Notes: generated from the letters alone by a model not told the origin. Counted from the stretch's first letter, positions 28,310 through 48,032 are shown. The stretch: 64,000 nt of DNA from Flavimaricola sp. (GCA_029255105.1 JAQWWH010000065.1:3670-67669); one strand, 5' to 3'. Translations and numbers: made by a program.

Positions 28310-28416
28310 GCGGATATGCATATCAAAATTAGAAAATTGGTCAATTCGCATAGGACGCGTCACAGCGTAGACCTGCCGCATCAACCGATCCCAATCCCGT
28401 ACAGAAAGGAACCAAG

Positions 28417-29133
28417 ATGACCGACCCGAATACATGGGATGCCACCGGAGCCCGCATGGCAGGTGCGCTATATCTTGCCATCGCAGTCTGCGGTGGCTTC
28501 AGCATTGCATATGTGCCTGCCCAGATCGTTGCCGCCGACGGGGCGACATCTGCGGCCAACCTCCTTGCCAATACGGGCCTGTTCCGGCTGGGCGTGCTGG
28601 CCGACTGCGCCGTGATCCTGTTCGAACTTGCCATCACGGTCATCCTTTACCAACTGTTCCGCGCCACGGGGCCCAGAATGGCGATGGTCGCCCTGATCTC
28701 GCGCCTCGGGATGATCGGTGTGATGGGGATCAACATTTTGCTCTGGGTGATGCCCTACGGCCTGTTGACTTCGACGACGCTAGATACGGCCACGCTACAC
28801 GCCCTTGTTCAATACAGTCTTGATGCGCATGCGATGGGCGTTTTCGTCTGGCAATTGTTCTTCGGGATGCATCTTCTTGCCCTCGGCTGGTTGGTCCTGA
28901 ACTCCGGCAATGTCCCAAACCTTTTGGGCTGGGGCCTGTTCATCGGGGCCTTTGGATACCTGGTCCAGGGGATCGTCGAACTGACCTACACCGATGTCGC
29001 CCTGCTTGACGCCGCCATCATCGGCCTGCTTGTCATCGTGTCGATCGCAGAAATAGGCTTTGGCCTCTGGCTCTTGATCAGAGGCGGGCGCATCCCTTCC
29101 AAAATTCTCACATCCACGGCCGCAAGGGCCTGA
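28417..29133 (+). CDS. DUF4386-like integral membrane protein
   Basis: 238 aa, about 6 TM. The N-terminus ARMAGALYLAIAVCGGFSIAYVP is typical of that family. The family assignment is from memory. Confidence 0.6.
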   Translation: MTDPNTWDATGARMAGALYLAIAVCGGFSIAYVPAQIVAADGATSAANLLANTGLFRLGVLADCAVILFELAITVILYQLFRATGPRMAMVALISRLGMIGVMGINILLWVMPYGLLTSTTLDTATLHALVQYSLDAHAMGVFVWQLFFGMHLLALGWLVLNSGNVPNLLGWGLFIGAFGYLVQGIVELTYTDVALLDAAIIGLLVIVSIAEIGFGLWLLIRGGRIPSKILTSTAARA

Positions 29134-29145
29134 AGGAGACTGCTC

Positions 29146-30216: not shown

Positions 30217-30223
30217 CACCCTA

Positions 30224-31024
30224 TCAAAGCTTGATAAGCAGAGGGTTCACCCCATCCTCAAACCGGTAATTGGGGCGCGCCGCCACAAATTCGTCCGCGG
30301 CCGCCCTGCACCCGCCATAGTCATTATAGTCGTCCAACAGGATCTGCCCCTGCGGCGAAAGAAGCGGATCCAAAGCTTCAAGGCAATACTTGACCGGATC
30401 GTACCAATCGCAATCGATGTGGGCAAAGGCGATCGGGCCAGTGGTCACATGAGGCCAGGTTTCCTCGAACAGGCCCTTGTGCAGCATCACACGCTCCGGG
30501 CTGCAACCGACCCCATAACGTTCAAAGGTCTGGCACACCTGACCATACAGATCCTCGACATAGCCGTAGTAGGCGTCGCCGCCGATCCCCTTGCTTTGGC
30601 CTTGCGAGATGATCTTGTAACGCTCTTTGGACTTTGCATCGTCCTTTTGGGACGTCGGTGGCGGGATCATGCCAAAGACGTCAAAGCCATGAAACGGGCG
30701 GCCTGCCTCGGTGGCGGATTTCGCGATCAGGATGCCGGACCCGCCAAGTGCGACGCCGAATTCAACAAAGCCGCCCGGCACCTTTTCCCTATTCAGGTCG
30801 CGCAGCGCCGTTTCGAGGCGATAGATCTTCTTGTGAGAAAGGTAGGTCAGCCGGTCAGCCCTGACTTTCCGGGCAAGGTTGCTGATCAGGAGGCGTGAAC
30901 TGACAATTCTTTCAATATTGCCTTTGGATAACAGCATCCTGACCAAATCGCGCATCGGTTTTGTCCTTAATTTGGGCAGGCTGCATGAATGAAATCTCAG
31001 TGATCTTCGCTGAAATCCGACCAT
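30224..31024 (-). CDS. TylF/MycF-family class I O-methyltransferase
   Basis: GFVEFGVALGGSGILIA (SAM site) and HIDCDWYDPVKYCLEAL (metal/active-site region) are typical of macrocin-O-methyltransferase-like proteins. The start may be the internal MRDLVRML at 30955. Confidence 0.75.
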   Translation of the reverse strand: MVGFQRRSLRFHSCSLPKLRTKPMRDLVRMLLSKGNIERIVSSRLLISNLARKVRADRLTYLSHKKIYRLETALRDLNREKVPGGFVEFGVALGGSGILIAKSATEAGRPFHGFDVFGMIPPPTSQKDDAKSKERYKIISQGQSKGIGGDAYYGYVEDLYGQVCQTFERYGVGCSPERVMLHKGLFEETWPHVTTGPIAFAHIDCDWYDPVKYCLEALDPLLSPQGQILLDDYNDYGGCRAAADEFVAARPNYRFEDGVNPLLIKL

Positions 31025-31223
31025 GTGGCCAGTCGATAGATGTTTCGAGCTTCGATCAGGTCCTTCCCCGCTGGCGGCATATCCAACTTTTCTGAATTTG
31101 ATTCCTCGGGATATGTTCTATACCCTAAACGGTCGCCTTTGTCTTGTGTCGCCCACCCGAAGCTGAAACGTTCAGAATCGTGGTCTAGGGGCTAACGTTT
31201 TGGTGGGTTGGGACAATTTTGGC

Positions 31224-34200: not shown

Positions 34201-34910
34201 ACAATACCGGCGACGCCGCAGGCGACACCTTCCTGTCGATAGAACAGGTGCAGGGCACACAGCTGAGCGACGACCTGAGAGGCGACGCACTGGCCAACCG
34301 CCTGATCGGCGACGCGGGGCACGACACGCTTTATGGCCGCGCGGGCGATGACGTCCTGTTGGGTGGGGCTGGAAATGACATTCTGCTTGGCAACACCGGG
34401 GCGGACAGGATTGATGGCGGCACCGGCACCGACCGCGCCTCTTACTGGAACAGCACCGAGGGCATTCTGGCTGACCTGGCGACGGCGGGCCTGAACACCG
34501 GTGACGCTGCGGGGGACAGCTACAGTTCGATAGAAGATTTGCAAGGCACGGACTTTGACGACGATCTGCGAGGCGATAGCGGGGCGAACATCCTATACGC
34601 CGGGACAGGCAACGACACCCTGACAGGGCGCGACGGCAATGACAGATTGTTCGGAGGCGAAGGTGCCGATTCATTCGTTTTCAGCGCCGGCGCCGACGTC
34701 ATCCGGGATTTCGGCATGGCGGAAGGCGATCGCCTCCTCCTCGATGTGCTGGCATTGGGACTTGGCGGCCTGACAGGGGCCGAGATCGTGGCAACGTTTG
34801 CCGATGCATCCCCGACAAGGGTTGAGTTTGACTTTGGCAATGACAACCGCCTGACGCTTGAGGGGCTGACCGACCTGACGGATATCGAAAGCCGCCTGTT
34901 CCTGTTCTGA
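31224..34910 (+). CDS. sulfatase (formylglycine type) fused to a long RTX/hemolysin-type calcium-binding repeat region
   Basis: N-terminal MANIVVISVDDL...TPEAICNPARTSTFTGQ (CxPxR sulfatase signature) and WSDHGYHLGD. From about aa 524 onward, GGxGxDxUx nonapeptides and 6 longer super-repeats run to the C-terminus. Confidence 0.85.
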   Translation: MANIVVISVDDLAHWIGPNTVYSANVHTPNLKRLAEAGVTFENAYTPEAICNPARTSTFTGQDPNTTGVHANDQSWEEFVDPAITYPAHFLQAGWDVAGYGKNLHPFNIPAAIHEQLFSHYEVLGGYREDPPNTKFVQALPEGVDPDSLADHQTVNDAIRFLASQDPDKSFLLNLGLLKPHLDWIVPQEYFDLYPLEDIVVPGLVGDDMSNVPAFIRDQLQDSRKHPTPNSPDAAKVFMQGYLASVSYMDAELGRLLDVLDAGGNFDTTNIVLWSDHGYHLGDREGLWGKFTLWEEATKVPLIIKSAANDNPGTIVSDIVNLIDIYPTLTEMGGLTPPSHLEGDSLMPLVTGTGPANGDGISMTWMFGSVMMRTPQFAFMAYEDGSEELYDMLIDPDQLNNLALLPEFDGTRDALRETLVEKANIATGPIGTGQSDAFYLNQDGDIAQGLDGDDRYYVNADGVTICESPDEGRDIVYSTSSFALPDNVEDLIAPYYTTPDGIVLTGNGLNNVIIGSGSSEMLFGGAGDDTIRGGWGRADTIYGGDGNDAILGWVGADLIHGDSGNDIIRGIRGNDTIFGGEGDDTLIAGAGDNVLLYGGAGRDTLQADSGTAFLDGGAGADRLVANGGTGFASYRTATVGVRADMSDQRSNRGDAMGDSYRNLQGLVGSDHNDALTGDNADNHLIGMAGADRLLGKDGTDRAAYWASAEGVLADLRYIRFNTGDAMGDIYGSIEDLQGTAFADDLRGDSAANLLLGDAGNDTFFGRDGDDTLRGGDGDDFLVGNAGSDLLDGGSGHDWASYWNSAACIVADLQFTDLNQGDAAGDTYSSIEGLQGTEFDDDLRGNDLANLIYGGGNQDTLSGRGGDDTLQGADGDDTLVGGAGADRLQGGEGFDLASYLDSAEGVLADLARAAFNTGDAAGDIYSLIESLQGSQFNDDLRGDANANRILGGDGQDILLGRGGADILDGGTGTDRATYEDSLTGILADLGYAIHNTGDAAGDTFLSIEQVQGTQLSDDLRGDALANRLIGDAGHDTLYGRAGDDVLLGGAGNDILLGNTGADRIDGGTGTDRASYWNSTEGILADLATAGLNTGDAAGDSYSSIEDLQGTDFDDDLRGDSGANILYAGTGNDTLTGRDGNDRLFGGEGADSFVFSAGADVIRDFGMAEGDRLLLDVLALGLGGLTGAEIVATFADASPTRVEFDFGNDNRLTLEGLTDLTDIESRLFLF
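32793..34680 (+). repeat. coding RTX nonapeptide array organised in about 6 super-repeats
   Basis: Recurrent blocks A(S/A/T)Y(W)xSxEG(V/I)LADL....NTGDAAGDxYxSIExLQGTxFDDDLRGDxxAN. The blocks start near 33116, 33328, 33618, 33908, 34146 and 34437. Confidence 0.85.
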
Positions 34911-35066
34911 CGGACCGCATAAGGGCCACTGCCGTGACCGGCGAACAGGCAAAGCGGCAAGGCGAAGCCCCGCCCGTTTGCGACAACACCCTTGACCCGA
35001 CGGACCTGTAGCGGGACAGTTGTGCGGCCCCGGGGCCAACGCTGGTCTTCCGGGCGGAGCCTGAAC

Positions 35067-37457
35067 ATGGACACCCGTTTTCCAGGATCATCACGATTAT
35101 CCCGCGATGGGCTGATCGCCCGTATCGCCGGTCTCACATTCCCGGTCGTGGTGATCGACGCCCCGGCCGGAACCGGCAAATCGTGGCTGCTGGAGGATCT
35201 GTCCCGCGCCCTTGGCCTGCCGATATGGCAGGGCAGCACGGCACCGGCGGACCCTGCCCTGTGGGACGTGCCGCACCAGGAGCTGACGGGCCCCCTGCCC
35301 GACGACATCTCGCGCCTGATCCTTGCCAAGCGTCCTGCCACGGCGATCCCCGGCCTTGCCCGGGCCGAGGTCTATGGCAAGGTCGCCCGTCTGACCGGGA
35401 CTGACCTGCTGTTCGACGCGCCCGAAGTGCAATCAGGCTATGATCTGACCGAGGCAGAGGCAGAAGGCATCATTGCAAAGACCGGCGGCTGGCCCTGCCT
35501 GATGCCTGCCACGCAGGGTAGCGCCGCCATGGACGTGGCGCTGAGTGCGTTTCTGCGCGATGATCTTTTGCGGCCCTTGGCATCGGCCCGGCTTGTCGCA
35601 CTTGACGCAGCGCTAAAGGGCAAGGCTGTGGACCACGCCGCCCTTCAGGGCATCCCGTTTCTGGAAGACGGGACCGGTCCCGGCCCGCTTAACCTGCCGC
35701 TGACCCTACCACGGCCGCTGGCCGCCTGTGTCGGCCCCCTGCGCCGCGCCATCAGCGACCTGCTGGCAGAGCGTAGTCAGGACCCCACACAGGCCCGCGC
35801 CATCGCCACGGCGCTTGCGGCCATTGGCGAGCTGCCAGAGGCCATCAGCATCTTTCAGTCGCTGGGCGCATGGCAGGCGGCAAGCGACACGCTGCGACAG
35901 GCCCGCGGCCCCTTTGCGATCCATTTGTTCGGGTCAGAGGCACTTGACCGGATATTGGCAGGCTTCCCCCCCGACATGGCCCGGCAGGACGAGCTGATCG
36001 TGCATTGCCGGGCGATCCAGGCGATCAAGCGTGGCGATGTCTCGCTGACCCACCGCATCCTTCGGGACCGCTATGGGGACGAGGCCAACGATCCCCGCAA
36101 GGTGGTTGGCAATGCCCAGCGCTACAGCCTTGAGTTTCGGCTGTTCCGGGTTCTGCTGCAAACCTGGGAGGACATCGACCTTGACGCGCATCTGCTGGAC
36201 GACGCCTACCAGATGCTGGGCGAGCTTCCGGCGGATGACGACCTGCGGCGCGGGTCCTTCTACAACGCGGTCCTCGAATTCTACATCCGCGCCCGCCGCT
36301 TTGCCGAGGCCGATCATACGGCGGTCCTTGCTGGCGCCCATTATTCCCGCGCAAACGTCCCGATCCTGTCGTTCTACATTGATCTGCACCGGGCGATCAT
36401 CCAGCTGCTTCTGGGCGATGCCGGGACCGCCCGCAAGCGTGCGGCCAGTGCCGCCGCCCATATGGCGCGGGTGCCGTATGACAGTCCGGGCGATACCCGC
36501 CTGCTAGGCCTTTTGACCGCCTGCATTGCCTATGAGGGGGGCGAGGCAGAACCGCTAAGCCGGTTTCTGTCGCTTGACCTTGACGATCTGGCCAGTGGCG
36601 AGATCTGGCCAACCCTGATCGAAATGGTCCTGATCTACGGCAGTCAGGCTTTGGCCGAACATTATTCGACCGTCGCCGCCCGCAGCTTTCTCGACCGGTG
36701 GCGGGTCCGGCAGGAGCGATCGGACCAGTTCGGCATGTTGATCGACATCCGCGATATCGTCGTCCTGCAGAACGGCAATCGCTGGCAAGAGGCGATGGTC
36801 AAGGCCGCCGGGCTGGACACCCGGATCTCGCTGGCCTGGGTCGAGGAAGGTGGCCCCCGGCTGGCCACCTTGCAGGACCGGGACGAGGTTGCCCTGGCCC
36901 TCGTCTGGCTGCGCCATCTGGCGCAGGTCACACCGACACGGGCCCGGCTCGATCGCTGGATCGGCGGCATGCTCGACAATCCCCACCTGACCGGGCGGCA
37001 AAGGATCGGGGCCGAGGTTTGGCTGGCCCATGTCCTGCACCGCCAGCGCCGGCTCCCCGAGGCGCAGGCCCAGTTGCGCAAGACACTGTCGACCGCCGCC
37101 AGCCTTGGCAGCATCGCCACGCTTAGCGAAGAACGGGTCTTTCTGGCCGAACTCACCTCGACCCGACGCGTCAAGGACGGGTTGGAGCGGAATGACATAC
37201 TGCGCCGTGTCCTGCGCCAGGTGCAGGAGGCCGGACCCGGCCGGGCGCGGCGCGGCAAGGCCCATGGGCTGACCCGGCAGGAAACCCGCATCCTGCATGC
37301 CCTTGCTGAAGGGGCGACCAACAAGATGATCGCCAATATCATGGGGTTAAGCGAGGCGACGGTAAAGTTTCACCTGTCCAACCTGTACCGCAAGCTGGGC
37401 TGCGCCAACCGGAGCGAGGCGATCAGGTCGGCAGAGGCCCTGCGCATCGTGTCGTGA
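35067..37457 (+). CDS. large ATP-binding LuxR-family regulator (LAL/MalT-like)
   Basis: P-loop VVVIDAPAGTGKSWLL, a long helical middle region, and the C-terminal HTH LTRQETRILHALAEGATNKMIANIMGLSEATVKFHLSNLYRKLG. I chose the ATG at 35067. Confidence 0.8.
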   Translation: MDTRFPGSSRLSRDGLIARIAGLTFPVVVIDAPAGTGKSWLLEDLSRALGLPIWQGSTAPADPALWDVPHQELTGPLPDDISRLILAKRPATAIPGLARAEVYGKVARLTGTDLLFDAPEVQSGYDLTEAEAEGIIAKTGGWPCLMPATQGSAAMDVALSAFLRDDLLRPLASARLVALDAALKGKAVDHAALQGIPFLEDGTGPGPLNLPLTLPRPLAACVGPLRRAISDLLAERSQDPTQARAIATALAAIGELPEAISIFQSLGAWQAASDTLRQARGPFAIHLFGSEALDRILAGFPPDMARQDELIVHCRAIQAIKRGDVSLTHRILRDRYGDEANDPRKVVGNAQRYSLEFRLFRVLLQTWEDIDLDAHLLDDAYQMLGELPADDDLRRGSFYNAVLEFYIRARRFAEADHTAVLAGAHYSRANVPILSFYIDLHRAIIQLLLGDAGTARKRAASAAAHMARVPYDSPGDTRLLGLLTACIAYEGGEAEPLSRFLSLDLDDLASGEIWPTLIEMVLIYGSQALAEHYSTVAARSFLDRWRVRQERSDQFGMLIDIRDIVVLQNGNRWQEAMVKAAGLDTRISLAWVEEGGPRLATLQDRDEVALALVWLRHLAQVTPTRARLDRWIGGMLDNPHLTGRQRIGAEVWLAHVLHRQRRLPEAQAQLRKTLSTAASLGSIATLSEERVFLAELTSTRRVKDGLERNDILRRVLRQVQEAGPGRARRGKAHGLTRQETRILHALAEGATNKMIANIMGLSEATVKFHLSNLYRKLGCANRSEAIRSAEALRIVS

Positions 37458-37641
37458 TCGTCCTGGCCCAGCGCCTGCCGACCGTCAAAAAGGCATATTC
37501 CAACAGGCCGCACAGAACCTAGCCAAATGGTGCAAAAACCTAGACTCCAATCCCATTGATGCAGAGGCCCCCAAGGGCAGAGGCTTGACCCATCAGAGGG
37601 CCGCGCGACCGGTCCCGCAGGTTTGTCCAATGGGGGATACC

Positions 37642-39204
37642 ATGACCACACGACTTTTGACGACGACAGCGGCGACAGCCTTGTCGGTAGCTTTGCTTGC
37701 TGCGGGGGCGGCCAACGCCCAGACCGTGGTGACAATGAACACCGTGCAGATCTTTGGCACCATCGATCCGGCCAAGATCAGCGACTACACCGACTATATG
37801 GCGGCGGTGAACCTTTATGACGGGCTGGTGACGGTCGATGGATCGGGCAACCTTGTCCCACAGCTGGCCGAAAGCTGGGTGGTGTCGGATGACGCCAGCG
37901 AAGTGACCTTTACCCTGCGCTCGGATGCCACCTTCAGCGATGGATCGCCGGTCGAGGCATCTGATGTGGTCTATTCGTTCGAGCGGTTGTTGCGCATCAA
38001 CCAAGGCCCCGCCAACCTTTTTGCAGGTGTGGTCGAGTCCGGCAGCGTCGTTGCCGTTGACGCGCAGACGGTGTCCTTCACCCTGTCCAAGACCTTTGCC
38101 CCCTTCATGGCAACGGTCCCGGCGCTGATGATCGTCAACGAAGAGGTGGTCGAGGCCAACCTTGGCGATGACGACGGTCAGACCTACCTGTCGGCCAATG
38201 TCGCAGGCTCTGGCGCCTATCTGCTGGACAGCTGGGATCGCGGATCGCGGATGATCATCAAACGCGACCCCAACTACTATGGCGAAATGCCGGAAAGCCC
38301 CATCGACGAGGTCCGCTGGATCGTCACCAATGACGAAGCCACCGTGCGTGCCCTTGCCGCGTCCGGCGAATTGACGATGTCGAGCCAGTTCCAGTCCCCC
38401 GATACCTATGCCGCCCTTGTCGACATGGGCCGGTTCCGGGTGGTCAGCCAGCCGACCGCGACTGCATTCTACTTCAAGCTCAACAGCCAGGTCGCCCCGA
38501 CCGATGACGTGCACATTCGCCGCGCCATCGCCTATGCAACGGACTTTGAGACCATCCGCGAGGTCATCTTTCCGGGTGATCCAATGACCACCGTCCTGCC
38601 CGAAGCCTTCGCAGACTTCCACGCAGGCGATGTTGAAGGCCCGTCCTACAACCTTGAGATGGCCGCCGCCGAAGTGGCGCAATCGGCCTATGCCGGTCAG
38701 GAGATCCCACTGACGCTGGGCTATGTGGCCGGGACCCTGTTCGAGGAAGAGATCAGCCTTCTGATGCAGGCCAATCTTGAAACGCTGGGCTTTGTCATCA
38801 CTCAGCAGCCTGACCCCTGGAACCGGGTGACCGAGATCGCAAGCCAGGTCGAAACCACCCCCAACCTGAACCAGATCTTCTTTGGACCCACCTACCCAAG
38901 CCCGGATTCGATGTTCTTTACCCAGTACCATTCAGACGCCGCAGGCACCTGGGCGTCGATGGAGTGGTTGCAGGACCCCGAGATCGACGCCCTGATCGAC
39001 GCAGCCCGCGCCACCGGCGACGTCGCCGAACAGGCCGAGCTTTACAAGCAAGTGCAGCGCAACCTGGCCGAACAGATGGTCAGCGTCCCGCTATTGGCCC
39101 AGACGGTTCAGCACGCGATGGACAACTGCCTGGACGGGTTCAACGCCGTTCCCATGCAGTCGTTTGACTACGACTTCTCTCGCTACAGCTGGACCTGCAT
39201 GTAA
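37642..39204 (+). CDS. ABC transporter substrate-binding protein, family 5 (peptide/opine/nickel type)
   Basis: Signal peptide MTTRLLTTTAATALSVALLAAGAANAQ. LAESWVVSDDASEVTFTLRSDATFSDGSPV. Confidence 0.85.
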   Translation: MTTRLLTTTAATALSVALLAAGAANAQTVVTMNTVQIFGTIDPAKISDYTDYMAAVNLYDGLVTVDGSGNLVPQLAESWVVSDDASEVTFTLRSDATFSDGSPVEASDVVYSFERLLRINQGPANLFAGVVESGSVVAVDAQTVSFTLSKTFAPFMATVPALMIVNEEVVEANLGDDDGQTYLSANVAGSGAYLLDSWDRGSRMIIKRDPNYYGEMPESPIDEVRWIVTNDEATVRALAASGELTMSSQFQSPDTYAALVDMGRFRVVSQPTATAFYFKLNSQVAPTDDVHIRRAIAYATDFETIREVIFPGDPMTTVLPEAFADFHAGDVEGPSYNLEMAAAEVAQSAYAGQEIPLTLGYVAGTLFEEEISLLMQANLETLGFVITQQPDPWNRVTEIASQVETTPNLNQIFFGPTYPSPDSMFFTQYHSDAAGTWASMEWLQDPEIDALIDAARATGDVAEQAELYKQVQRNLAEQMVSVPLLAQTVQHAMDNCLDGFNAVPMQSFDYDFSRYSWTCM

Positions 39205-39210
39205 CTTCGG

Positions 39211-39256
39211 CCCTGCCCAAAGCCTCGCCCCGACCGCCCTAAGGCAGGGGCGAGGC
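39211..39256 (+). terminator. intercistronic stem-loop after the SBP gene
   Basis: GCCTCGCCCC (39222-39231) pairs with GGGGCGAGGC (39247-39256). An alternative outer pairing is CCCTGCC/GGCAGGG. There is no clear T-tract. Confidence 0.35.
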
Positions 39257-39284
39257 ATCCTGAAACCCCCCATTGGTGGATGCC

Positions 39285-40310
39285 ATGGAATTCCTCGGCT
39301 TCCTTGTCAGACGGCTGCTTTGGTCGCTTCTGGTGCTGTTCGGGCTGTCGATCGTGATCTTCACGATTGCCCGGATCGTGCCGGGCGATCCGGCCCGCAT
39401 GGCCCTTGGCCCCACCGCAAGCGCCGAGCAGGTGGCAGACCTGCAAGAAAAGCTGGGCCTGAACAAGCCGATGGTCGAACAATACGGCCTGTTCCTGACC
39501 GGCCTGACACGAGGCGAGCTGGGGCGTTCACTCCTGACCGAACAATCGGTCAACTCCGACATCCGCAAGACCTTTCCCGCAACGCTTGAGCTGGTGATCT
39601 CAACCATCCTCTTTGCCTTTGTCCTTGGTGTTCCCCTCGGGGTGGCGGCGGCGCGATGGAAGGACCGATGGCCCGATACCCTTGTGCGCGCCATCGCCAT
39701 CTTTTCCGCCGTTCTGCCCGCCTTCTTCCTCGCGCTTCTGCTGCAAATTCTGGCGGGCTATGTCCTCAATATCCTGCCCACCACCGGGCGACTCCCGGCG
39801 AGCATGTCGTTTGACGCCGATATCACCGGGCTGATCCTGATCGACAGCCTTCTGAAGGGCCGGCTCGACGTGATGGGCGAAGCCGCGCGGCATCTGTTGC
39901 TGCCCACCCTCGCCCTTGGTCTAGCCACGATGGGCCAGATCGCCCGGATCACCCGCGCCTCGATGATCGACGTCAGCCGGCAGGACTATATCGAGGCCGC
40001 CCGCGCCTTTGGCGTGCCGGACCGGCTGCGGATGTTCAAATACATGCTGCGCCCCGCCTTTGTCCCGCCCCTGACGATCACCGGGCTCGAATTTGCCTCT
40101 CTCATCGGCAACGCCTTTGTGGTCGAGCTGATCTTTTCCTGGCCGGGCATGGCCTCTTACGGGATCCGGGCCATCGTCCAGAAGGACCTGAACGCCATCA
40201 TGGGTGTTGTCATGGTGTCGGGGGCGTTCTTTGTCTTCGTCAACCTTTTGATCGATGTGCTTGTCGGCGTCGTGGACCCCCGCGTCCGGATCAGGGGAAG
40301 CCGGACATGA
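39285..40310 (+). CDS. ABC transporter permease (DppB/OppB-like)
   Basis: MEFLGFLVRRLLWSLLVLFGLSIVIFT is the typical N-terminus. 6 TM. Confidence 0.85.
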   Translation: MEFLGFLVRRLLWSLLVLFGLSIVIFTIARIVPGDPARMALGPTASAEQVADLQEKLGLNKPMVEQYGLFLTGLTRGELGRSLLTEQSVNSDIRKTFPATLELVISTILFAFVLGVPLGVAAARWKDRWPDTLVRAIAIFSAVLPAFFLALLLQILAGYVLNILPTTGRLPASMSFDADITGLILIDSLLKGRLDVMGEAARHLLLPTLALGLATMGQIARITRASMIDVSRQDYIEAARAFGVPDRLRMFKYMLRPAFVPPLTITGLEFASLIGNAFVVELIFSWPGMASYGIRAIVQKDLNAIMGVVMVSGAFFVFVNLLIDVLVGVVDPRVRIRGSRT

Positions 40311-41173
40311 GCCAGCAGGAAGCCCTGTCCAACGCCTGGCAGAACTGGTTCCGGTTCTCGCGCAATCCGACGGCCGTGATCGGGGCGATCATCGTGATCA
40401 GCTCGGTCTCGCTGGCGTTGCTGGCGCCCTACATCACCCCCTTTCCAGACCATGTTGGCGCGGTCGTCGATTTCCGCAACCGTCATCAGCCCCCGTCCGC
40501 GGTGCATTGGTTTGGCACTGACAACGTGGGGCGGGACATCTTTACGCGCGTCATCTTTGGCCTGCGGGTGTCGCTGCTTCTGGCTGTCGTGGTGCTGGGC
40601 ATCGCGATCCCGGTTGGCGTGGTCCTTGGCCTGCTCGCTGGATACTTTGGCGGCTGGGTCGAGATTGTGATCATGCGGATCACCGATATTGCCCTGGCCA
40701 TTCCGCCCCTTGTCATGGCGCTGGCGGTCGCCGCAGTGCTCACCCCGTCGCTGACAAACTCCATGCTCGCCATCGCCCTTCTCTGGTGGACCTGGCACAC
40801 CCGGCTGATCTATTCGCTGACCCGGCAATTGCGCAGTCAGGAGTTTGTCGAGGCGGCCGAAACGCTGGGCGCGTCAAAGGCGCATATCCTGTTTCGCGAA
40901 ATCCTGCCCAATTGCGTGTCGGCCATTGCGGTCAAGACATCGCTGGACGCGGGGTTCGTGATCCTGATCGGGGCGGCGCTGTCGTTTCTGGGGCTGGGCA
41001 TCCAGGCGCCCACCCCCGACCTTGGGACGATGGTCGCCTCGGGCGCGTCGTTCCTGCCCGACTACTGGTGGGAAAGCGTCCTGCCCGGCTGCGCGATCCT
41101 GTTTGTTGCCCTTGGCTTCAACCTTCTGGGCGACGGCTTGCGCGACATGTTCGATGTCGAGGACGTGCGATGA
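40307..41173 (+). CDS. ABC transporter permease (DppC/OppC-like)
   Basis: 288 aa. HWFGTDNVGRDIFTRVIFG motif. Confidence 0.85.
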   Translation: MSQQEALSNAWQNWFRFSRNPTAVIGAIIVISSVSLALLAPYITPFPDHVGAVVDFRNRHQPPSAVHWFGTDNVGRDIFTRVIFGLRVSLLLAVVVLGIAIPVGVVLGLLAGYFGGWVEIVIMRITDIALAIPPLVMALAVAAVLTPSLTNSMLAIALLWWTWHTRLIYSLTRQLRSQEFVEAAETLGASKAHILFREILPNCVSAIAVKTSLDAGFVILIGAALSFLGLGIQAPTPDLGTMVASGASFLPDYWWESVLPGCAILFVALGFNLLGDGLRDMFDVEDVR

Positions 41174-41988
41174 CAGCGCTTCTGTCCGTCCAGAACCTGA
41201 GCGTGTCCTTCACCACCTATGGCAGGCGGGTCGAGGTGCTAAAGTCGGTTTCGCTTGACGTGCCCGAAGGGGCGCAGATCGCGCTGGTGGGCGAAAGCGG
41301 GTCGGGCAAGTCGGTGACCATGAAGACGATCATGGGCATCCTGCCCCAGCCCCCGGCCAGGATTGACGGCGGCTCGATCCTCTTTGACGGGCGCGACCTT
41401 CTGACCCTGCCCGAACGCGAAAGGCTCAAGCTGCGGGGCACCGCGATGAGCATGGTGTTTCAGGACCCGATGTCCTCGCTTAACCCGGTGTTCACGATCT
41501 ACGACCAGCTTGGGACGATCCTGAAATACGCCGACCGCCGCCTTGGCCGGAACCGGTCCGGCAAAGAGCGTAAGGCAAGGGTCCTCGACGTCCTTGCCCA
41601 GGTGCGCATGCGCGAGCCTGAGCGGGTCGCGGCCTCCTTTCCCATCATGCTGTCGGGGGGGATGCGGCAGCGGATCCTGATCGCGATGGCGCTTCTGTCC
41701 GAACCCCGCCTTCTGATCGCGGATGAGCCGGGGACGGCGCTGGATGTCACAACGCAGGCCCAGATCCTCAAACTGTTGAAAGACCTTGTCACCGAAAAGG
41801 GTCTGGCCCTTTTGATGATCACCCACAACCTGGGGGTCGTGCGCGAGACCTCTGGCTACACTTACGTGATGAACAAGGGCGAGATTGTCGAACACGGGCC
41901 AACCGCCGGGATCTTCGAGGCCCCGCGGCAGGCTTATACCCGCGACCTGATCGCCGCCGTGCCGCGCCTGACCGGGAGGGACCGATGA
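41170..41988 (+). CDS. ABC transporter ATP-binding protein (DppD-like)
   Basis: MTALLSVQNLSVSF, Walker A GESGSGKS, signature LSGGMRQRILIAMAL. The ATG at 41170 overlaps the permease TGA. The track start at 40786 lies inside the permease gene. Confidence 0.85.
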   Translation: MTALLSVQNLSVSFTTYGRRVEVLKSVSLDVPEGAQIALVGESGSGKSVTMKTIMGILPQPPARIDGGSILFDGRDLLTLPERERLKLRGTAMSMVFQDPMSSLNPVFTIYDQLGTILKYADRRLGRNRSGKERKARVLDVLAQVRMREPERVAASFPIMLSGGMRQRILIAMALLSEPRLLIADEPGTALDVTTQAQILKLLKDLVTEKGLALLMITHNLGVVRETSGYTYVMNKGEIVEHGPTAGIFEAPRQAYTRDLIAAVPRLTGRDR

Positions 41989-42872
41989 CCGCTCCGGTTC
42001 TGGAACTGCGCGACGTGGTCAAGACCTATGCCCTAAAGGGGGCCTTTGGCCGCTCTGCCGGAGAGGTGCGGGCGGTGGACGGGGTGTCCTTTGCGATCCA
42101 GAAGGGCGACGTCTACGGCCTTGCAGGCGAAAGCGGATCGGGCAAGTCCACCATTGCGCGGATGATCATGGGGCTGACACCGCCCACATCCGGCGACATC
42201 CTGATCGACGGGCAAAGCATCCTAGGGCGGCAGGCGACGCTGGCCCATCGCCAGCAGGTCCAGATGGTGTTCCAGAACCCCGGCGCGTCGCTGAACCCGC
42301 GCCGGACCGTGGGGCAATCCATTCGCGTGGCGCTGGATGCCCATCATTATGCCGATGACCGCAAGGCGCGCGTGGCCGAGCTTTTGGAAATGGTGCAGAT
42401 GCCACGCCACTTTGCCGACCGCTATCCCCACGAGCTTTCGGGTGGGCAAAAACAGCGCGTCGCCATCGCCCGCGCCCTTGCCGTTGAACCCCGCCTTCTG
42501 GTGCTGGATGAGCCGACATCGGCACTTGATGTGTCGGTCCAGGCCCGCGTGATCGAGCTTTTGGAGGGCCTCGTCGACCAGCTTGGCCTGACCTACCTTT
42601 TCATCAGCCATGACCTGAGCCTGATGCGCAACTTTGCCCAGGACGTCGGTGTCCTTTACCTTGGCAAGATCGTCGAGACGGGCCCGGTGGCTTCGGTCTT
42701 TGCCGATCCCCGACACGACTACACCCGCCTCTTGCTCGCCTCTGTCCCAGTCATTTCGGCCGAGGAAGAGGCGCTGAGGCCCAAGATCCCCCTCATTAAC
42801 GGCGAGATACCAACCGCCGAAGACCTGCTTGCATTGCGCACCCAGGCCCAATCGAAGGAACCACAGACATGA
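41985..42872 (+). CDS. ABC transporter ATP-binding protein (DppF-like)
   Basis: Walker A GESGSGKST, signature [15 protein letters not shown], Walker [13 protein letters not shown]. Confidence 0.9.
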   Translation: MTAPVLELRDVVKTYALKGAFGRSAGEVRAVDGVSFAIQKGDVYGLAGESGSGKSTIARMIMGLTPPTSGDILIDGQSILGRQATLAHRQQVQMVFQNPGASLNPRRTVGQSIRVALDAHHYADDRKARVAELLEMVQMPRHFADRYPHELSGGQKQRVAIARALAVEPRLLVLDEPTSALDVSVQARVIELLEGLVDQLGLTYLFISHDLSLMRNFAQDVGVLYLGKIVETGPVASVFADPRHDYTRLLLASVPVISAEEEALRPKIPLINGEIPTAEDLLALRTQAQSKEPQT

Positions 42873-44416
42873 TCCGGATCGGCATAGACGTGGGCGGCAC
42901 CAATACCGATGCCGTCGTGATGGATGGCAACACGGTCATCGCAGGCGTAAAGGCCGCGACCAGCAAGGATGTGATGACCGGCGTGGTCAACGCCCTGCGC
43001 AAGGTCCTTGACGCCGCCGGGATGGAGGCCTCTGCCGTTGACGTGGTCATGATCGGGACGACCCATTTCACCAACGCCGTCGTACAGCGCCGCGACCTTG
43101 CACCGACCGCCGCTGTCCGCCTGTGCCTGCCCGCCACCGCGTCCCTGCCCCCGATGGTCGACTGGCCCGAGGACCTGCGCGACGTGATCGGTAACCACTG
43201 GTTTCTGGCCCATGGCGGCAATGAATTCGACGGGCGCGTCATCTCGCCGATCGACGAGGCAGAGCTTGTCCACATCGCGGACCAGATCCGGGAACGGGGT
43301 GTGAATTCGGTCGCCGTGACGGCGGTCTTTTCCCCCGTCTCTACCGACTTTGAGCGGCAGGCTGGTGAGATCCTGGCCAAGGCCCTGCCCGATGCGCATA
43401 TCACCCTGTCCTCGGACATCGGCCGCATCGGCCTGCTCGAGCGTGAGAATGCCGCCATCATGAACGCCTGCCTGCGCGACCTGTCGCGCGATGTGGTCGC
43501 GGCGTTTCGCGGTGCGCTGGCCGATGTAGGCTTTACCGGCCGGTTCTACCTGACCCAGAACGACGGCACCCTGATGGATGCCGAATTTGCCGAAAGGTTC
43601 CCGGTTCTGACCTTTGCCTCCGGCCCCACCAACTCTATGCGGGGGGCAGCGTTTCTGTCCGGCGTGCAGGACGCCATCGTCGTCGACATCGGCGGCACGA
43701 CCTCGGACGTGGGGTCCTTGCAAAAGGGCTTTCCGAGGCAGGCCACCGTCGCGGTTGAGGTTGGCGGCGTGCGCACCAACTTTCGCATGCCGGACGTCTT
43801 TTCCATCGGGCTGGGGGGCGGATCGCTTGTCGTCGATGGTCCGGACGCGCTGACGGTCGGTCCGCAGTCCGTGGGCTACAGGATTGTCACCGAGGCGCTG
43901 ATTTTCGGGGGAGAGACGCTGACAACCTCTGACATCATCGTGGCCGATGGGGCCGCCGACCTTGGTGACAAGAGCAAGGTCGCGGGCCTCAGCCCGGACT
44001 TGATCCGCAAGGCGCGGGACCGCATTGCCTTTATGCTCGAGGATTCGGTGGAACGCGCCCGCATCTCGGCTGACCCCCTGCCCGTCATCGTGGTTGGTGG
44101 CGGCTCGATCCTGGTTGAGGGGCCGATTGCGGGGCTTGAGCTGATCATGCCCAACCATTTCGCCGTGGCCAATGCGGTGGGGGCCGCCATCGCCCAGGTC
44201 AGCGGTGAGGTTGATCGGGTCTATTCCCTGGCCGAGATTGGCCGCGACGAGGCGCTGAACGATGCCAAGGCCCGCGCGACCGAAGCGGCCGTGGCCGCAG
44301 GGGCCCGCCGCGATACGATCGAGATCGTCGATGTGGAGGATGTCCCGCTGGCCTACCTGCCCGGCAACGCGACCCGCGTGCGGGTCAAGGCGGTGGGTGA
44401 ACTTCATGTCGGTTAA
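42869..44416 (+). CDS. hydantoinase/oxoprolinase family protein (HyuA-like, ASKHA fold), with no HyuB partner
   Basis: MIRIGIDVGGTNTDAVVMDG...VVDIGGTTSDVG (two actin-fold phosphate motifs). 515 aa. Its ATG overlaps the upstream ATPase stop. Confidence 0.8.
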   Translation: MIRIGIDVGGTNTDAVVMDGNTVIAGVKAATSKDVMTGVVNALRKVLDAAGMEASAVDVVMIGTTHFTNAVVQRRDLAPTAAVRLCLPATASLPPMVDWPEDLRDVIGNHWFLAHGGNEFDGRVISPIDEAELVHIADQIRERGVNSVAVTAVFSPVSTDFERQAGEILAKALPDAHITLSSDIGRIGLLERENAAIMNACLRDLSRDVVAAFRGALADVGFTGRFYLTQNDGTLMDAEFAERFPVLTFASGPTNSMRGAAFLSGVQDAIVVDIGGTTSDVGSLQKGFPRQATVAVEVGGVRTNFRMPDVFSIGLGGGSLVVDGPDALTVGPQSVGYRIVTEALIFGGETLTTSDIIVADGAADLGDKSKVAGLSPDLIRKARDRIAFMLEDSVERARISADPLPVIVVGGGSILVEGPIAGLELIMPNHFAVANAVGAAIAQVSGEVDRVYSLAEIGRDEALNDAKARATEAAVAAGARRDTIEIVDVEDVPLAYLPGNATRVRVKAVGELHVG

Positions 44417-45512
44417 AGACGCCTACCCCCTGCTGGAAGCGGACCTTTTGCCGCTTTCGATCGGGGCGGCCCTTCTGGGCACCGGCGGCGGGGGAAACCC
44501 CTATGTCGGCATGCTACGATCCCGCGAACTGCTGCGCAAAGGGGCGACGGTCGACATCCTGCCACTTGAGGCGCTGCCGGATGACGCCTGGATCGGCGAG
44601 GTCGGCGGCATTGGCGCCCCCGTTGTCGGCGTTGAAAAGATCGAACAGGGCGAGGAATGCTACCGCGCCATGCGCGCCGTCGAAGACGTTGCCAACGTCA
44701 AGATGTCGGCGCTGATCTGCGCCGAGATCGGCGGGGCCAATTCGATGGAGCCGGTGATCACGGCCGCACAGGCGGGCCTGCCCGTCATCGATGGGGACGG
44801 CATGGGCCGGGCCTTTCCCGAAGTGCAGATGACGACGTTCTTCATCTACGGGGCAAAACCTGCCCCCGCCGCCATCGCGGACGACAAGGGCAATACGGTC
44901 GTGTTCCGCGATGTGGTCGACATGTACTGGCTGGAACGGTTCGCCCGCGACACCTCTGTCGCGATGGGGGCGGCGGCAGGTCTGGCGATTGCGCCGATGC
45001 GGATGGACTTCGTCCGGCGCACAGCGGTGCCCAACACGATGACACAGGCCCTGCAGATCGGGCGGACCGTGCTTGATGCCCGCGCCCGCAGGCTGAACGT
45101 GGTCGACCGGGTGATCGCGACCACCGGGGCCACGCTGTTCTTTACCGGCAAGATCACCGACATCCGGCGCGAGCTGAAGGGCGGTTTTGCCCGGGGCGAG
45201 GCCAAGATCGCAGGCTCAGGCGACTGGCAGGGCTGCGAAGGGCGGATCGCCATCCAGAACGAGAACCTTGTCCTCTGGGTCGACGGCACGCCCGTCATCA
45301 TGGTTCCCGACCTGATCATCAACCTTGACCTGGAAACCGGGGAACCGATCACCACCGAGATCCTGCGCTACGGCCAGCGGGTCGCGGTGATCGGCCTGCC
45401 CGTCCACGACCTGATGAAAACGCCCGAGGCGATGGCGGTCGTCGGCCCTCAGGCCTTTGGCTATCCCGACCTCACATTCACCCCCCTGGCCCTTGGCCCG
45501 GTGCACGGCTGA
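44406..45512 (+). CDS. DUF917 family protein, copy 1
   Basis: LGTGGGGNPYVG, IDGDGMGRAFPEVQMTTF, GGFARGEA. I chose the ATG at 44406 (MSVKDAYPLL), which overlaps the HyuA-like stop. The track start at 44262 lies inside the upstream gene. Confidence 0.75.
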   Translation: MSVKDAYPLLEADLLPLSIGAALLGTGGGGNPYVGMLRSRELLRKGATVDILPLEALPDDAWIGEVGGIGAPVVGVEKIEQGEECYRAMRAVEDVANVKMSALICAEIGGANSMEPVITAAQAGLPVIDGDGMGRAFPEVQMTTFFIYGAKPAPAAIADDKGNTVVFRDVVDMYWLERFARDTSVAMGAAAGLAIAPMRMDFVRRTAVPNTMTQALQIGRTVLDARARRLNVVDRVIATTGATLFFTGKITDIRRELKGGFARGEAKIAGSGDWQGCEGRIAIQNENLVLWVDGTPVIMVPDLIINLDLETGEPITTEILRYGQRVAVIGLPVHDLMKTPEAMAVVGPQAFGYPDLTFTPLALGPVHG

Positions 45513-45523
45513 AAGGAGCTGAC

Positions 45524-46609
45524 ATGACCATTCTGCGCAAAATCGACGTGGCCGACATGGAGGACATCGCCATTGGCGGGGCGGTTCTTGGCACCGGCGG
45601 CGGAGGTGACCCTTATGTGGGCAAGCTGATGGCCCAGCAGGCCATTCGCCAGTACGGGCCGGTCAACCTCATGGATGTCTCGGAACTGGACGACGACGCC
45701 CTCGTTGTCCCGGTCTGCATGATGGGGGCCCCCACTGTCATGACCGAGAAGCTGCCCCAGGGCGACGAGTTGATGAACGCCTTTCGGGCGCTTGAAAAGG
45801 TGATGGGCCGCAAGATCGACGCAGTCCTGTGCGGCGAGGCGGGGGGCGTCAATTCGACCACGCCCTTTGTCGTTGCGGCCGCCTCTGGCCTGCCGCTCAT
45901 TGACGGCGACGGCATGGGCCGGGCCTTTCCGGAATTGCAGATGGTGACCTTTACACTGTCGGGTGTCTCCGCAACACCGATGGTCCTATGCGATGACAAG
46001 GGCAATTCCCTCGTCCTTGATACCGTGTCAAACGCCTGGACAGAGCGGCTGGCCCGGGCGGCCACGATCGAAATGGGGGGATCGGCGCTGCTGGCGTTTT
46101 ACCCGATGTCGGGCAAGGTCGCCAAAGAGGCGGTGGTGCGGGGGACCCTGTCGCTTTGCGCCAAAGTGGGGGAAACCCTGCGCAGCGCCCGCGCCGCACA
46201 CGCCGATCCTGTCGCCGCATTGGCAGAGCTGCTGGGGGCGCAGATCCTGTTCCATGGCCGGATCATGGACATCGAACGACGCACTGAAGGCGGCTTTGCC
46301 CGGGGCAAGGCCACTGTGTCGGGGGTAGAAGAGTATCGCGACCAGACCCTCCGCCTTGATTTTCAGAACGAATTTCTGATTGCCGAACGGGACGGAACGG
46401 TCCTTGCGACCACCCCCGACCTGATCTCCCTTGTCGAGGCGGACAGCGGCGATCCGGTGACCACCGATTCCCTGAAATACGGCCAACGGCTGATCACCCT
46501 TGCCTGGCCCTGCAACCCGCTCTGGCGGACGCCCGAAGGGATCAAGCTGGTCGGCCCGCGCTACTTCAAATACGACCGGGATTATGTGCCCTTGGCGGGG
46601 TCCGCCTGA
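45524..46609 (+). CDS. DUF917 family protein, copy 2 (paralogue of copy 1)
   Basis: LGTGGGGDPYVG, IDGDGMGRAFPELQMVTF, GGFARGKA. AAGGAG RBS. Confidence 0.75.
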   Translation: MTILRKIDVADMEDIAIGGAVLGTGGGGDPYVGKLMAQQAIRQYGPVNLMDVSELDDDALVVPVCMMGAPTVMTEKLPQGDELMNAFRALEKVMGRKIDAVLCGEAGGVNSTTPFVVAAASGLPLIDGDGMGRAFPELQMVTFTLSGVSATPMVLCDDKGNSLVLDTVSNAWTERLARAATIEMGGSALLAFYPMSGKVAKEAVVRGTLSLCAKVGETLRSARAAHADPVAALAELLGAQILFHGRIMDIERRTEGGFARGKATVSGVEEYRDQTLRLDFQNEFLIAERDGTVLATTPDLISLVEADSGDPVTTDSLKYGQRLITLAWPCNPLWRTPEGIKLVGPRYFKYDRDYVPLAGSA

Positions 46610-46868: not shown

Positions 46869-48032
46869 TCAGTTTTTTGCGGCGAGTACTGTCGTGCACT
46901 CTGTCAAAGCGTCATCGAGTGTAGGCAATCTTGAAAATTCATCAGCGGCCTGTTCGGCGGCCATCTTTCTCTCAGGGGCATTTAGAACGTCCAAGATTCT
47001 TGAGCCAAGCATTCCAATATCCTGATCCTCTACCGTTATGCTCAGACCTGCTGCTGCCAAGCATCGGGCGTTGTCGGGTTGATCGGCAAACATTGGCACC
47101 ACAATCATCGGCACACCCGCGGCCAACCCTCCCAGAACGGTTCCGGAGCCGCCATGGCAGACCATCAAATCCACGTAGTTGAGCACCCATGCCTGATCTA
47201 CAAAGTCCCTCACGACAACGTTTTCGGGTACGTTCTTTATCAGATCGGGCGGTGCGTCCTTTCCAGTAGTCATAAGAACTGTAATCGGCAGATTTGCGAC
47301 TGCTTTCAGGCTTGCATCATAGATATGTCTGGCACGACCCTCGCCCGCGGTCACCGTCCCAAAGGTCATGTAAACCAAAGGTACGTTGCGATCCAGAAGC
47401 CATTCGGGGCGACCTGCCACTGGTACTTTGGGCAGCGCGGAGGTTCTGAAACGGTACGGTTCCCGACTGTTTATCCTCATAGTATCGTCGAGAACTTTGG
47501 GATGGGCGCTGAGGGCCGGTTCGTCTCTAAGGTAACCTTCTCCGATTGCAGGCAATGACACACTGGTTCGCAGCGCGTCCATTTCCGTCGCATAATTTGA
47601 AGCGATAGACTCTTCGGACTCGCCATTCACGATCTCGAAGCGGACATGATGGATGCCCAGTTTCTTGGCTGCGATCAAGCCTGCGAACTCGGTCGACTCG
47701 CGGAATAGCAGGTCAGGACGCCATTTCTCTAATTCCGTCAACAATCCGGGAATCGCAGAACGTGCCGCCAAGCCCATGAAGAATTGAGACATAAAGAGCT
47801 TGCCCTCGTCTTCACGCCTGACTTTTTGGGCCCGCCGGTTCAGGTCTTCAAACTCCGGATCTGTCCACCCATTGAACTCTAGATGATCAAAGCCATGCTT
47901 CCTGATTTCGGCACCAAGTTCAGGAACAGCCGCCACGCGAACATCATGGCCCCGTTCCTTCATCTTCTGTGCGATTGGCATCAAAGGAAGAAAATGGCTG
48001 ACCAGGGCGTTGGTTGTTACCAGAATTCGCAA
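46869..48032 (-). CDS. GT1-family (UDP-glycosyltransferase / MGT-like) glycosyltransferase
   Basis: MRILVTTNALVSHFLPLMPIAQKMKERGHDV and the C-terminal donor-binding motif CHGGSGTVLGGLAAGVPMIVVPMFADQPDNA. TTG start. G+C is visibly lower than in upstream genes. Confidence 0.8.
   Translation of the reverse strand: MRILVTTNALVSHFLPLMPIAQKMKERGHDVRVAAVPELGAEIRKHGFDHLEFNGWTDPEFEDLNRRAQKVRREDEGKLFMSQFFMGLAARSAIPGLLTELEKWRPDLLFRESTEFAGLIAAKKLGIHHVRFEIVNGESEESIASNYATEMDALRTSVSLPAIGEGYLRDEPALSAHPKVLDDTMRINSREPYRFRTSALPKVPVAGRPEWLLDRNVPLVYMTFGTVTAGEGRARHIYDASLKAVANLPITVLMTTGKDAPPDLIKNVPENVVVRDFVDQAWVLNYVDLMVCHGGSGTVLGGLAAGVPMIVVPMFADQPDNARCLAAAGLSITVEDQDIGMLGSRILDVLNAPERKMAAEQAADEFSRLPTLDDALTECTTVLAAKN

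Follow-up and report, generated by a model that had tools for sequence, protein, structure and literature searches.

The closest described relatives of the system considered here are the HyuA/HyuB enzymes, among them N-methylhydantoinase (7hk5, 9h03), OplAB and the caprolactamase CapAB (6yra), for which it has been proposed that the A subunit phosphorylates the lactim oxygen of the substrate and that a metal-containing B subunit hydrolyses the activated ring (PMC8453981). Acetone and acetophenone carboxylases are more distant members of the same circle. Here we describe a 64,000-nucleotide stretch of DNA from Flavimaricola sp. (GCA_029255105.1 JAQWWH010000065.1:3670-67669; hereafter the window, with positions counted from its first letter), in which a short HyuA-like protein is encoded together with two tandem paralogues of the DUF917 family and a Dpp-type importer.

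The known DUF917 enzymes, the thiohydantoin and S-methyl thiohydantoin desulfurases, exchange the SH or SCH3 group at C2 of a thiohydantoin for oxygen, and are not known to need ATP for this; chemically, the group on an sp2 ring carbon of an imidazolidinone is displaced by hydrolysis. The thiohydantoin desulfurase has reportedly been the subject of papers from the Seebeck laboratory. A third point of comparison is offered by a survey of gene clusters of cyclodipeptide oxidases (CDO), which found DUF917, hydantoin racemase, AroM and Dpp/Opp-type ATP-binding cassette (ABC) transporters to be enriched near CDO genes; it does not mention a HyuA-like partner, and the role of DUF917 proteins as hydantoinases is only guessed there (bioRxiv 10.1101/2023.09.25.559410).

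The locus in the window shares features with each of these systems and differs from all of them. With the HyuA/HyuB enzymes, its HyuA-like protein has in common the Hydant_A_N and Hydantoinase_A domains, the fold and the phosphate motifs P1 and P2, and its gene likewise stands beside those for a partner protein and a transporter; unlike them, it is only 515 residues long rather than about 690, it lacks the adenosine motif GxxPGP, and the HyuB metal-hydrolase is missing, with the unrelated DUF917 fold in its place. The DUF917 proteins belong to the same two-domain family as the (S-methyl)thiohydantoin desulfurases and share their fold, but differ from them in being obligately linked to an ATP-binding partner, in forming two ancient paralogues and in having no ergothioneine context. 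As in the non-CDPS CDO clusters (bioRxiv 10.1101/2023.09.25.559410), a set of DUF917, racemase, AroM and Dpp/Opp transporter genes is also found around HyuA-DUF917 pairs elsewhere, whereas the window operon itself holds no CDOA, CDOB, racemase or AroM gene. The unit is best filed with the ATP-dependent hydantoinase/oxoprolinase kind, with the DUF917 pair standing in for HyuB. We consider it quite possible, though short of probable, that it uses ATP to open the ring of an imported cyclic amide or ureide, with the DUF917 A/B pair in place of HyuB. The data below show the gene structure, the co-conservation, the fusions, the folds and the conserved motifs; ATP-dependent activation, the complex between the proteins, ring opening and the class of substrate are all parts of this reading that we infer. 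The three genes at its centre are the following:

42869-44416, + strand: short HyuA-like ASKHA protein, 515 aa, putative ATP-dependent substrate kinase
44406-45512, + strand: DUF917/S-Me-THD-family paralogue A (DUF917-A), 368 aa, matching PF06032 and PF20906
45524-46609, + strand: DUF917/S-Me-THD-family paralogue B (DUF917-B), 361 aa, matching PF06032 and PF20906

Co-conservation of HyuA-like and DUF917 genes

The preliminary description of this DNA had called the combination of HyuA-like and DUF917 genes a recurrent and unexplained association, and the recurrence is borne out when the neighbourhood is followed across genomes. A scan of one genome per species gave 80 loci with relatives of DUF917-B at 55-99% identity, onto which the nine proteins of the window operon were mapped by tblastn, with counts taken over those loci that had enough flanking DNA. 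Of 64 eligible loci, which cover several bacterial phyla and one archaeon, 62 have a HyuA-like gene no more than 3 kb from the DUF917-B orthologue; a second DUF917 gene adjoins the orthologue in 51 of 57 loci, and in 35 of 40 the importer is represented by at least four of its five genes. The full nine-gene order, from the LuxR regulator to DUF917-B, is kept in all 24 close alphaproteobacterial loci (at least 70% identity), which come from Rhizobium, Mesorhizobium, Devosia, Pleomorphomonas, Ferranicluibacter and Rhodobacterales. Because the arrangement is conserved across so many genomes, it is no chance juxtaposition, and the gene-neighbourhood check that the preliminary description had asked for thus comes out in favour of co-conservation, both of the two gene families and of the importer. 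When all open reading frames (ORFs) of the 80 loci were clustered, no conserved catabolic gene emerged beyond the nine of the alphaproteobacterial unit; the clusters otherwise consisted of antisense shadow ORFs, with racemase, CDO-like and HyuB genes in a few loci, mostly in Chloroflexota. HyuB occurs in only four related loci (five copies), four of which also hold a canonical HyuA that is just 26-29% identical.

The short HyuA-like family is large, with 995 matches at E < 1e-30 in a phmmer search of 1.84 billion representatives of clusters at 50% identity, and the genomic context of six distant short HyuA-like proteins contained the pair of HyuA-like and DUF917 genes wherever it could be read, including in Eubacterium, Haloferax, Lactiplantibacillus, Sodalis, Parageobacillus and Paenarthrobacter. 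The transporter of the unit is replaceable. On pRlX3 of Rhizobium johnstonii, the HyuA-like gene, two DUF917 genes and a LuxR regulator are accompanied by a Pot-type ABC system, a racemase and a nitroreductase-family gene; on Haloferax pHM100, a Dpp-type system stands with one HyuA-like and three DUF917 genes; an NCS1 'cytosine permease' forms a cassette with DUF917 and the HyuA-like gene on small plasmids of Lactiplantibacillus plantarum (L169), Sodalis glossinidius (pSG2, L170) and the thermophilic bacillus Parageobacillus (L168); and the Eubacterium context holds only a PucR-type regulator, DUF917 and the HyuA-like gene. Among the insect symbionts, Arsenophonus also carries the NCS1-DUF917-HyuA-like cassette.

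The pairing extends to eukaryotes, where the two families are joined in one polypeptide. Among the 150 best HyuA-like representatives, about 60 have lengths of 870-1090 aa, with the HyuA-like part at the N-terminus, and all seven of the long proteins that were scanned have the domain order Hydant_A_N, Hydantoinase_A, S-Me-THD_N, S-Me-THD_C, with Hydantoinase_A truncated in the same way as in the window protein. The fusions come from animals, namely Acanthaster (crown-of-thorns starfish), Haliotis (abalones), Oculina (coral) and Actinia (sea anemone), and from the protists Ancoracysta, Anaeramoeba and Pelomyxa, and in their HyuA part they match the window protein over its full length with 40-50% identity; P0212, P0216, P0389, P0392, P0207, P0229 and P0261, of about 970-1070 aa, are annotated as uncharacterised or just as 'hydantoinase'. 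These fusions are strong evidence that HyuA-like and DUF917 proteins work together, and they probably do so in contact. Since both minimal cassettes and fusions exist, the core unit is a HyuA-like protein with one DUF917 protein, the two-copy heteromer being an elaboration and not a requirement. A single fusion protein of 2715 aa additionally carries NB-ARC and TPR domains.

The individual genes are named 'hydantoinase/oxoprolinase family protein' and 'DUF917 domain-containing protein' in RefSeq, and no published function for the three-gene HyuA-DUF917-DUF917 unit was found in the searchable full-text literature. With the pairing already visible in public annotation, the unit is a well-defined 'known unknown' and not a categorically new system.

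The HyuA-like protein resembles substrate kinases

Pfam assigns Hydant_A_N (3.6e-39) and Hydantoinase_A (7.4e-32) to the HyuA-like protein, the latter covering only profile positions 1-170 of 291, and its sequence matches in the PDB are N-methylhydantoinase, the caprolactamase subunit CapA and the kinase subunits of acetone and acetophenone carboxylases. An AlphaFold2 (AF2) model of the protein, with a predicted local distance difference test (pLDDT) value of 91.5, leads to the same enzymes: in Foldseek, the template modelling (TM) scores to them are 0.63-0.78, with six of seven at 0.72-0.78 (the structures matched include 9h03, 6yra, 5l9w and 5svb), compared with only about 0.3 to activases and sugar kinases. 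The scores against the NCBIfam equivalogs all stay far below their cut-offs, the best being that to CapA, at 99.8 bits versus a cut-off of 1000.

The phosphate motifs P1 (DxGGTxTD) and P2 (DxGGT) have been described for CapAB together with the lactim-phosphate mechanism (PMC8453981). In the window protein they read DVGGTNTD (residues 7-14) and DIGGT (residues 273-277), and they are invariant or nearly so in alignments of 29 and 34 sequences. On the strength of the Foldseek scores and of these two motifs, the protein is predicted to be of the substrate-kinase type. A number of further invariant polar residues lie off the nucleotide site (ERE 191-193, N231, N255-S256, D309 and D355), and this pattern suggests a second ligand site.

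Two diverged DUF917 paralogues

Each of the two DUF917 copies matches PF06032 and PF20906 (S-Me-THD_N and S-Me-THD_C, formerly DUF917) with E-values of 1e-56 to 1e-70. The three sequence blocks quoted in the preliminary description are indeed present in both, and the moderate similarity that had been judged by eye amounts to 42% identity over 351 residues (E = 7e-90). An alignment of 43 diverse DUF917 members contains 21 invariant columns, among them E105, D127-x-D129, R133, E137, N282-E283 and D299, and all of these residues are kept in both window copies, which on this basis both look catalytic. For the AF2 model of DUF917-B (pLDDT 86.5), Foldseek finds a sole structural relative in the PDB, 2o3i (TM 0.79-0.81), all other matches having E > 0.1; this is a structural-genomics entry without assigned function that carries the conserved DxDGxGRA motif, and because nothing but 2o3i was returned, the structure yields no mechanistic analogy.

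The statement that DUF917 has no broadly established function has been overtaken for the family, though not for these proteins. Pfam now names the two domains S-Me-THD_N/C, after the (S-methyl)thiohydantoin desulfurases, and NCBIfam has the equivalogs NF058529 and NF058532 for the thiohydantoin and S-methyl thiohydantoin desulfurases, to which the two window copies score 80.7-141.2 bits, with cut-offs of 440 and 450. Because these scores lie far below the cut-offs and no ergothioneine-pathway gene is nearby, we regard the window proteins as relatives, and not orthologues, of the desulfurases.

In a distance tree the two copies fall into separate clades. Clade B, with DUF917-B orthologues at 55-90% identity, is found in Alphaproteobacteria, Deinococcota, Chloroflexota, Actinomycetota, Bacillota and one archaeon; clade A comprises copies from Alphaproteobacteria and Deinococcota and, more distantly related, two from Chloroflexota. 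The separation of the clades over these phyla therefore argues for an old duplication, after which the copies travelled together.

The operon, its importer and its regulator

ORF listing and translation of the window place nine consecutive genes on the + strand at 34992-46609, the last three of which have been given above. The remaining features are:

34992-37457, + strand: LAL (MalT-like) LuxR-family regulator; the longest ORF runs from TTG 34992, with ATG 35067 as the probable start
37516-37542, + strand: candidate operator AACCTA-N15-AACCTA, about 100 nt 5' of the start codon of the next gene
37642-39204, + strand: family-5 (Dpp/Opp/Nik-type) periplasmic substrate-binding protein (SBP); Pfam SBP_bac_5, E = 5.6e-66
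39273-40310, + strand: ABC permease, DppB-like; Pfam BPD_transp_1 and BPD_transp_1_N; syntenic in relatives
40307-41173, + strand: ABC permease, DppC-like; Pfam BPD_transp_1 and OppC_N
41170-41988, + strand: ABC ATPase, DppD-like; Pfam ABC_tran, with oligo_HPY sub-threshold (22.9 bits versus a cut-off of 27.1)
41985-42872, + strand: ABC ATPase, DppF-like; Pfam ABC_tran and oligo_HPY

The layout agrees closely with the preliminary description: gene positions and start/stop overlaps were reproduced by the ORF listing and translation, Pfam domains identify the five genes at 37642-42872 as a family-5 ABC importer, a tblastn search of the 64-kb window found no HyuB gene to accompany the HyuA-like protein, and the gene directly upstream encodes a protein with a GerE helix-turn-helix (HTH) domain and a sequence resembling the Walker A motif of MalT, compatible with a LAL-type regulator. 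Neighbouring genes overlap by 4 nt at 40307, 41170, 41985 and 42869 (at 41170, the ATG of the DppD-like ATPase overlaps the stop codon of the DppC-like permease) and by 11 nt at 44406, and an 11-nt spacer separates DUF917-A from DUF917-B before 45524. A terminator scan found no terminator-like site on the + strand from the SBP gene to the end of the operon, and a promoter scan found no sigma-70-like promoter on this strand. Because of the 4-11 nt overlaps and the lack of a + strand terminator-like site within, the genes from the SBP to DUF917-B can be read as a single transcription unit. The 3' neighbour is a convergent GT1 glycosyltransferase gene, a sulfatase-RTX protein is encoded upstream, and Pel-type genes lie beyond the operon; with these neighbours the unit is bounded as previously described. 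The operon has a GC content of 62-65%, compared with a window mean of about 60%, but other segments are equally GC-rich, and horizontal transfer is not claimed.

The importer has the make-up of the Dpp/Opp type (PepT family), with the SBP, the permeases and the DppF-like ATPase above the Pfam cut-offs and only the oligo_HPY domain of the DppD-like ATPase below. The ATG of the SBP at 37642 sits inside a longer ORF from 37585, and the N-terminus of the protein, MTTRLLTTTAATALSVALLA, resembles a signal peptide. Its nearest solved relatives are AapF (7kz8, 118 bits), AgaA (6hlx, 107 bits) and E. coli DppA (101 bits), and the five-component family-5 ABC architecture is what the window system has in common with the DppABCDF, AgaA (agropinic acid) and AapF (HEHEAA) importers. 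The termini of a bound dipeptide are anchored in mature E. coli DppA by Asp408 and Arg355; the window SBP differs in having Pro and Gly at the aligned positions, which, in an alignment of about 25% identity, is weak evidence.

The regulator is an 821-aa protein with a C-terminal GerE HTH (residues 760-814, E = 1.6e-19) and, read from the translation, a MalT-like Walker-A-like sequence DAPAGTGKS near its N-terminus, where the P-loop domains AAA_16 and AAA_22 are far sub-threshold (E 0.18-0.98), as is TPR. It thus has the GerE/LuxR HTH on a protein of at least 800 aa that is expected of LAL regulators, and, like MalT and its LAL relatives, it is a large LuxR-HTH protein, with what looks like a P-loop motif near the N-terminus. 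In all 24 loci with at least 70% identity, the LuxR gene directly precedes the importer. A four-way alignment of the spacers between regulator and SBP shows two AACCTA hexamers in a 21-bp register as the best-conserved blocks, and the pattern AACCTA-N15-AACCTA occurs once in the 64-kb window, where 0.01 matches are expected. Across the 80 loci (1.25 Mb) it has 23 matches, all of them in the LuxR-SBP spacer, on the + strand and in loci having the regulator gene. The repeat is thus likely to be the binding site (operator) of the LAL regulator; it bears no known resemblance to the MalT boxes.

A possible route of import and ring opening

How could these parts work together? The operon would constitute a substrate-inducible system to import a compound and open its ring. 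The LAL regulator would probably bind AACCTA-N15-AACCTA and activate the importer promoter, upon which the Dpp-type ABC importer would bring a small peptide-like heterocycle into the cell. The cytoplasmic HyuA-like protein would then use ATP to phosphorylate the oxygen of a ring carbonyl, giving a lactim or isourea phosphate, and the DUF917 A/B pair, acting in place of HyuB, would add water at the activated carbon, expel the phosphate and open the ring. The demand made on DUF917 would be a displacement as on the thiohydantoin sulfur, here with phosphate as the leaving group. As the unit contains no other conserved catabolic gene, ring opening should yield a common metabolite.

These data are compatible with the cyclic-amide or peptide-like substrate suggested in the preliminary description. 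2,5-Diketopiperazines (cyclic dipeptides) come into question, as do 5-substituted hydantoins and other lactams with five- or six-membered rings. Genome context outside the window points to cyclic amides: HyuA-DUF917 genes in Chloroflexota, on the metagenomic contig L083 and in Rhizobium are flanked by CDO-like pairs (PF00881 and PF19585), Asp/Glu/hydantoin racemases and AroM. The NCS1 permeases of the compact cassettes, for their part, point to small N-heterocycles. One could speculate further that the short HyuA-like protein and DUF917 represent a distinct, universally distributed ATP-dependent lactamase architecture which opens 2,5-diketopiperazines, with the window operon as a complete system to sense, import and linearise environmental cyclic dipeptides, but in this specific form we consider the proposal unlikely.

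Two contexts are recorded here for their gene content. On contig L083:1-13584, a single HyuA-like gene lies amid seven DUF917 paralogues, three Asp/Glu racemases, AroM and a nitroreductase (CDOA-like) followed by a 93-aa ORF. The plasmid pYJN5-3 of Paenarthrobacter sp. YJN-5 (L171:557-10735) has the order DUF917, HyuA-like, NTF2-family protein, M19 'membrane dipeptidase', regulator, ABC transporter and Asp/Glu racemase, and this is the one instance of an M19 dipeptidase beside a HyuA-DUF917 pair. The strain degrades iprodione, and a 2026 paper describes hydantoinase genes induced by the hydantoin fungicide, without resolving which ones.

Several observations weigh against ring opening by such a pair. 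CapA-type subunits have an adenosine motif, GxxPGP, that is not conserved here: SVGYRIV of the HyuA-like protein aligns with GAVPGP of N-methylhydantoinase, and no PGP is conserved across the family. The 43-member DUF917 alignment contains no invariant histidine, and therefore the Asp-His-Asp-His metal site of HyuB is not reproduced. Single-DUF917 systems occur, and DUF917-A has been lost on pMLa of Mesorhizobium japonicum, where about 310 nt with a 234-nt 'hypothetical' ORF lie between the HyuA-like gene and DUF917-B (L085:9001-11944). The nearest solved relatives of the SBP bind unrelated ligands and have low similarity to it, so that they do not constrain the substrate class. On the metagenomic contig of P0227 (JGI 3300059473), the HyuA-DUF917 pair is found within a row of purine-biosynthesis genes (PurQ-like, PurK, PurE, PurC (SAICAR synthase) and PurF-like), a context that hints at non-hydrolytic or non-catabolic chemistry in some members. 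Finally, to our knowledge the characterised DUF917 enzymes need neither ATP nor a partner.

Alternative explanations

The HyuA-like protein and DUF917 could also perform two consecutive, independent steps on free intermediates without forming a complex, the two DUF917 copies differing in substrate. This would accommodate the variable number of DUF917 genes per HyuA-like gene, which ranges from one to three or more, and the presence of up to seven paralogues around one HyuA-like gene, which suggests a diversification of specificity. The fixed N-to-C order of the fusions in many eukaryotic lineages and the overlapping coding regions are, on the other hand, typical of associated subunits, and a free lactim phosphate would be labile, so we consider this explanation unlikely.

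Alternatively, the pair might carry out an ATP-dependent group exchange or ring closure, turning C=O into C=N or C=S or cyclising by way of an iminophosphate as in PurL- and PurM-type enzymes, in which case the operon would modify the imported compound. An activated amidine carbon could in principle take nucleophiles besides water, and it is the one contig with PurQ-like, PurK, PurE, PurC and PurF-like genes around the pair that lends substance to this idea. The window and most other contexts argue for catabolism or salvage, as they hold importers and substrate-type regulators (LAL, PucR, a sigma-54-dependent activator, Lrp) and no biosynthetic genes, and we judge a role of this kind to be quite unlikely.

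A further possibility is that the HyuA-like protein is no substrate kinase at all but an ATP-driven activase or chaperone of the DUF917 enzyme, comparable with the partners of GlmL/MutL or BcrAD/BadFG type. Whole-protein likeness speaks for the kinases, with TM scores of 0.63-0.78 to HyuA-type subunits versus about 0.3 to activases; the list of invariant residues offers no family-wide cysteine pair for a bridging iron-sulfur cluster; and the many invariant polar residues off the nucleotide site suggest a second ligand site. Even with the weak Pfam and NCBIfam matches to BcrAD_BadFG, MutL/GlmL and CoA_E_activ, the absence of the canonical adenosine motif and the fact that the known DUF917 enzymes are not known to use ATP, all of which would suit an activase, we find this role decidedly unlikely.

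A role of the DUF917 proteins in ergothioneine catabolism, as ordinary (S-methyl)thiohydantoin desulfurases that work without ATP next to an incidental HyuA-like protein, is very improbable, for although their Pfam domains bear the name of that enzyme and the sole NCBIfam matches of both copies are the two desulfurase equivalogs, the scores are 81-141 bits against cut-offs of 440-450, no ergothionase- or urocanase-like gene is present among the annotated ORFs of the window or the conserved neighbours of the 80 loci, and the HyuA-like gene accompanies DUF917 in 62 of 64 loci, with the two joined into fusions in eukaryotes. Ergothioneine catabolism was accordingly rejected as the function of the operon, on the low NCBIfam scores together with the failure to find the pathway genes.

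Surroundings of the operon in the window

The operon is flanked by a small, biosynthetic-looking set of genes at 21994-31024 and 46869-48032, comprising two ketosynthase-like genes, a type III polyketide synthase, a flavin adenine dinucleotide (FAD) oxidoreductase, a LysR regulator, a zinc-dependent dehydrogenase, a TylF-type O-methyltransferase and a macrolide-type GT1 glycosyltransferase. The sulfatase-RTX gene (31200-34910) encodes a 1236-aa protein with an N-terminal sulfatase domain and at least 10 RTX calcium-binding repeats, and the region 7207-11275 encodes a second family-5 SBP, 26% identical to that of the operon, beside a convergent amidohydrolase and a class-V aminotransferase. A contig 99% identical to the operon (L001, JAUREI010000109.1) is labelled as a Prosthecobacter (Verrucomicrobiota) metagenome-assembled genome. 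Because the flanking window gene at 12658-13857 is nearest to Paracoccaceae, Actibacterium and Jannaschia and so places the window in Paracoccaceae, this label is probably a binning error, and the contig L004, labelled 'Limisphaerales', may likewise be mis-binned.

Significance

If the proposed ring opening by the HyuA-like and DUF917 proteins is correct, an oxoprolinase-type module for ATP-dependent activation would have been recombined with a wholly different hydrolytic fold. This would also explain the ATP-free branch of DUF917, where sulfur is already a good leaving group. Members of the short HyuA-like family are found on rhizobial megaplasmids, on haloarchaeal plasmids and, in lactobacilli and insect symbionts, on small plasmids. 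As a point of entry to the family, the alphaproteobacterial operon is convenient, with its dedicated SBP and regulator, a sharp candidate operator and culturable representatives in Rhizobium, Devosia and Mesorhizobium. The identity of the substrate could also explain the clusters associated with cyclodipeptide oxidases, and should the cyclic-dipeptide reading hold, the pair would be the missing general enzyme for the opening of cyclic dipeptides in bacteria, archaea, protists and marine animals.

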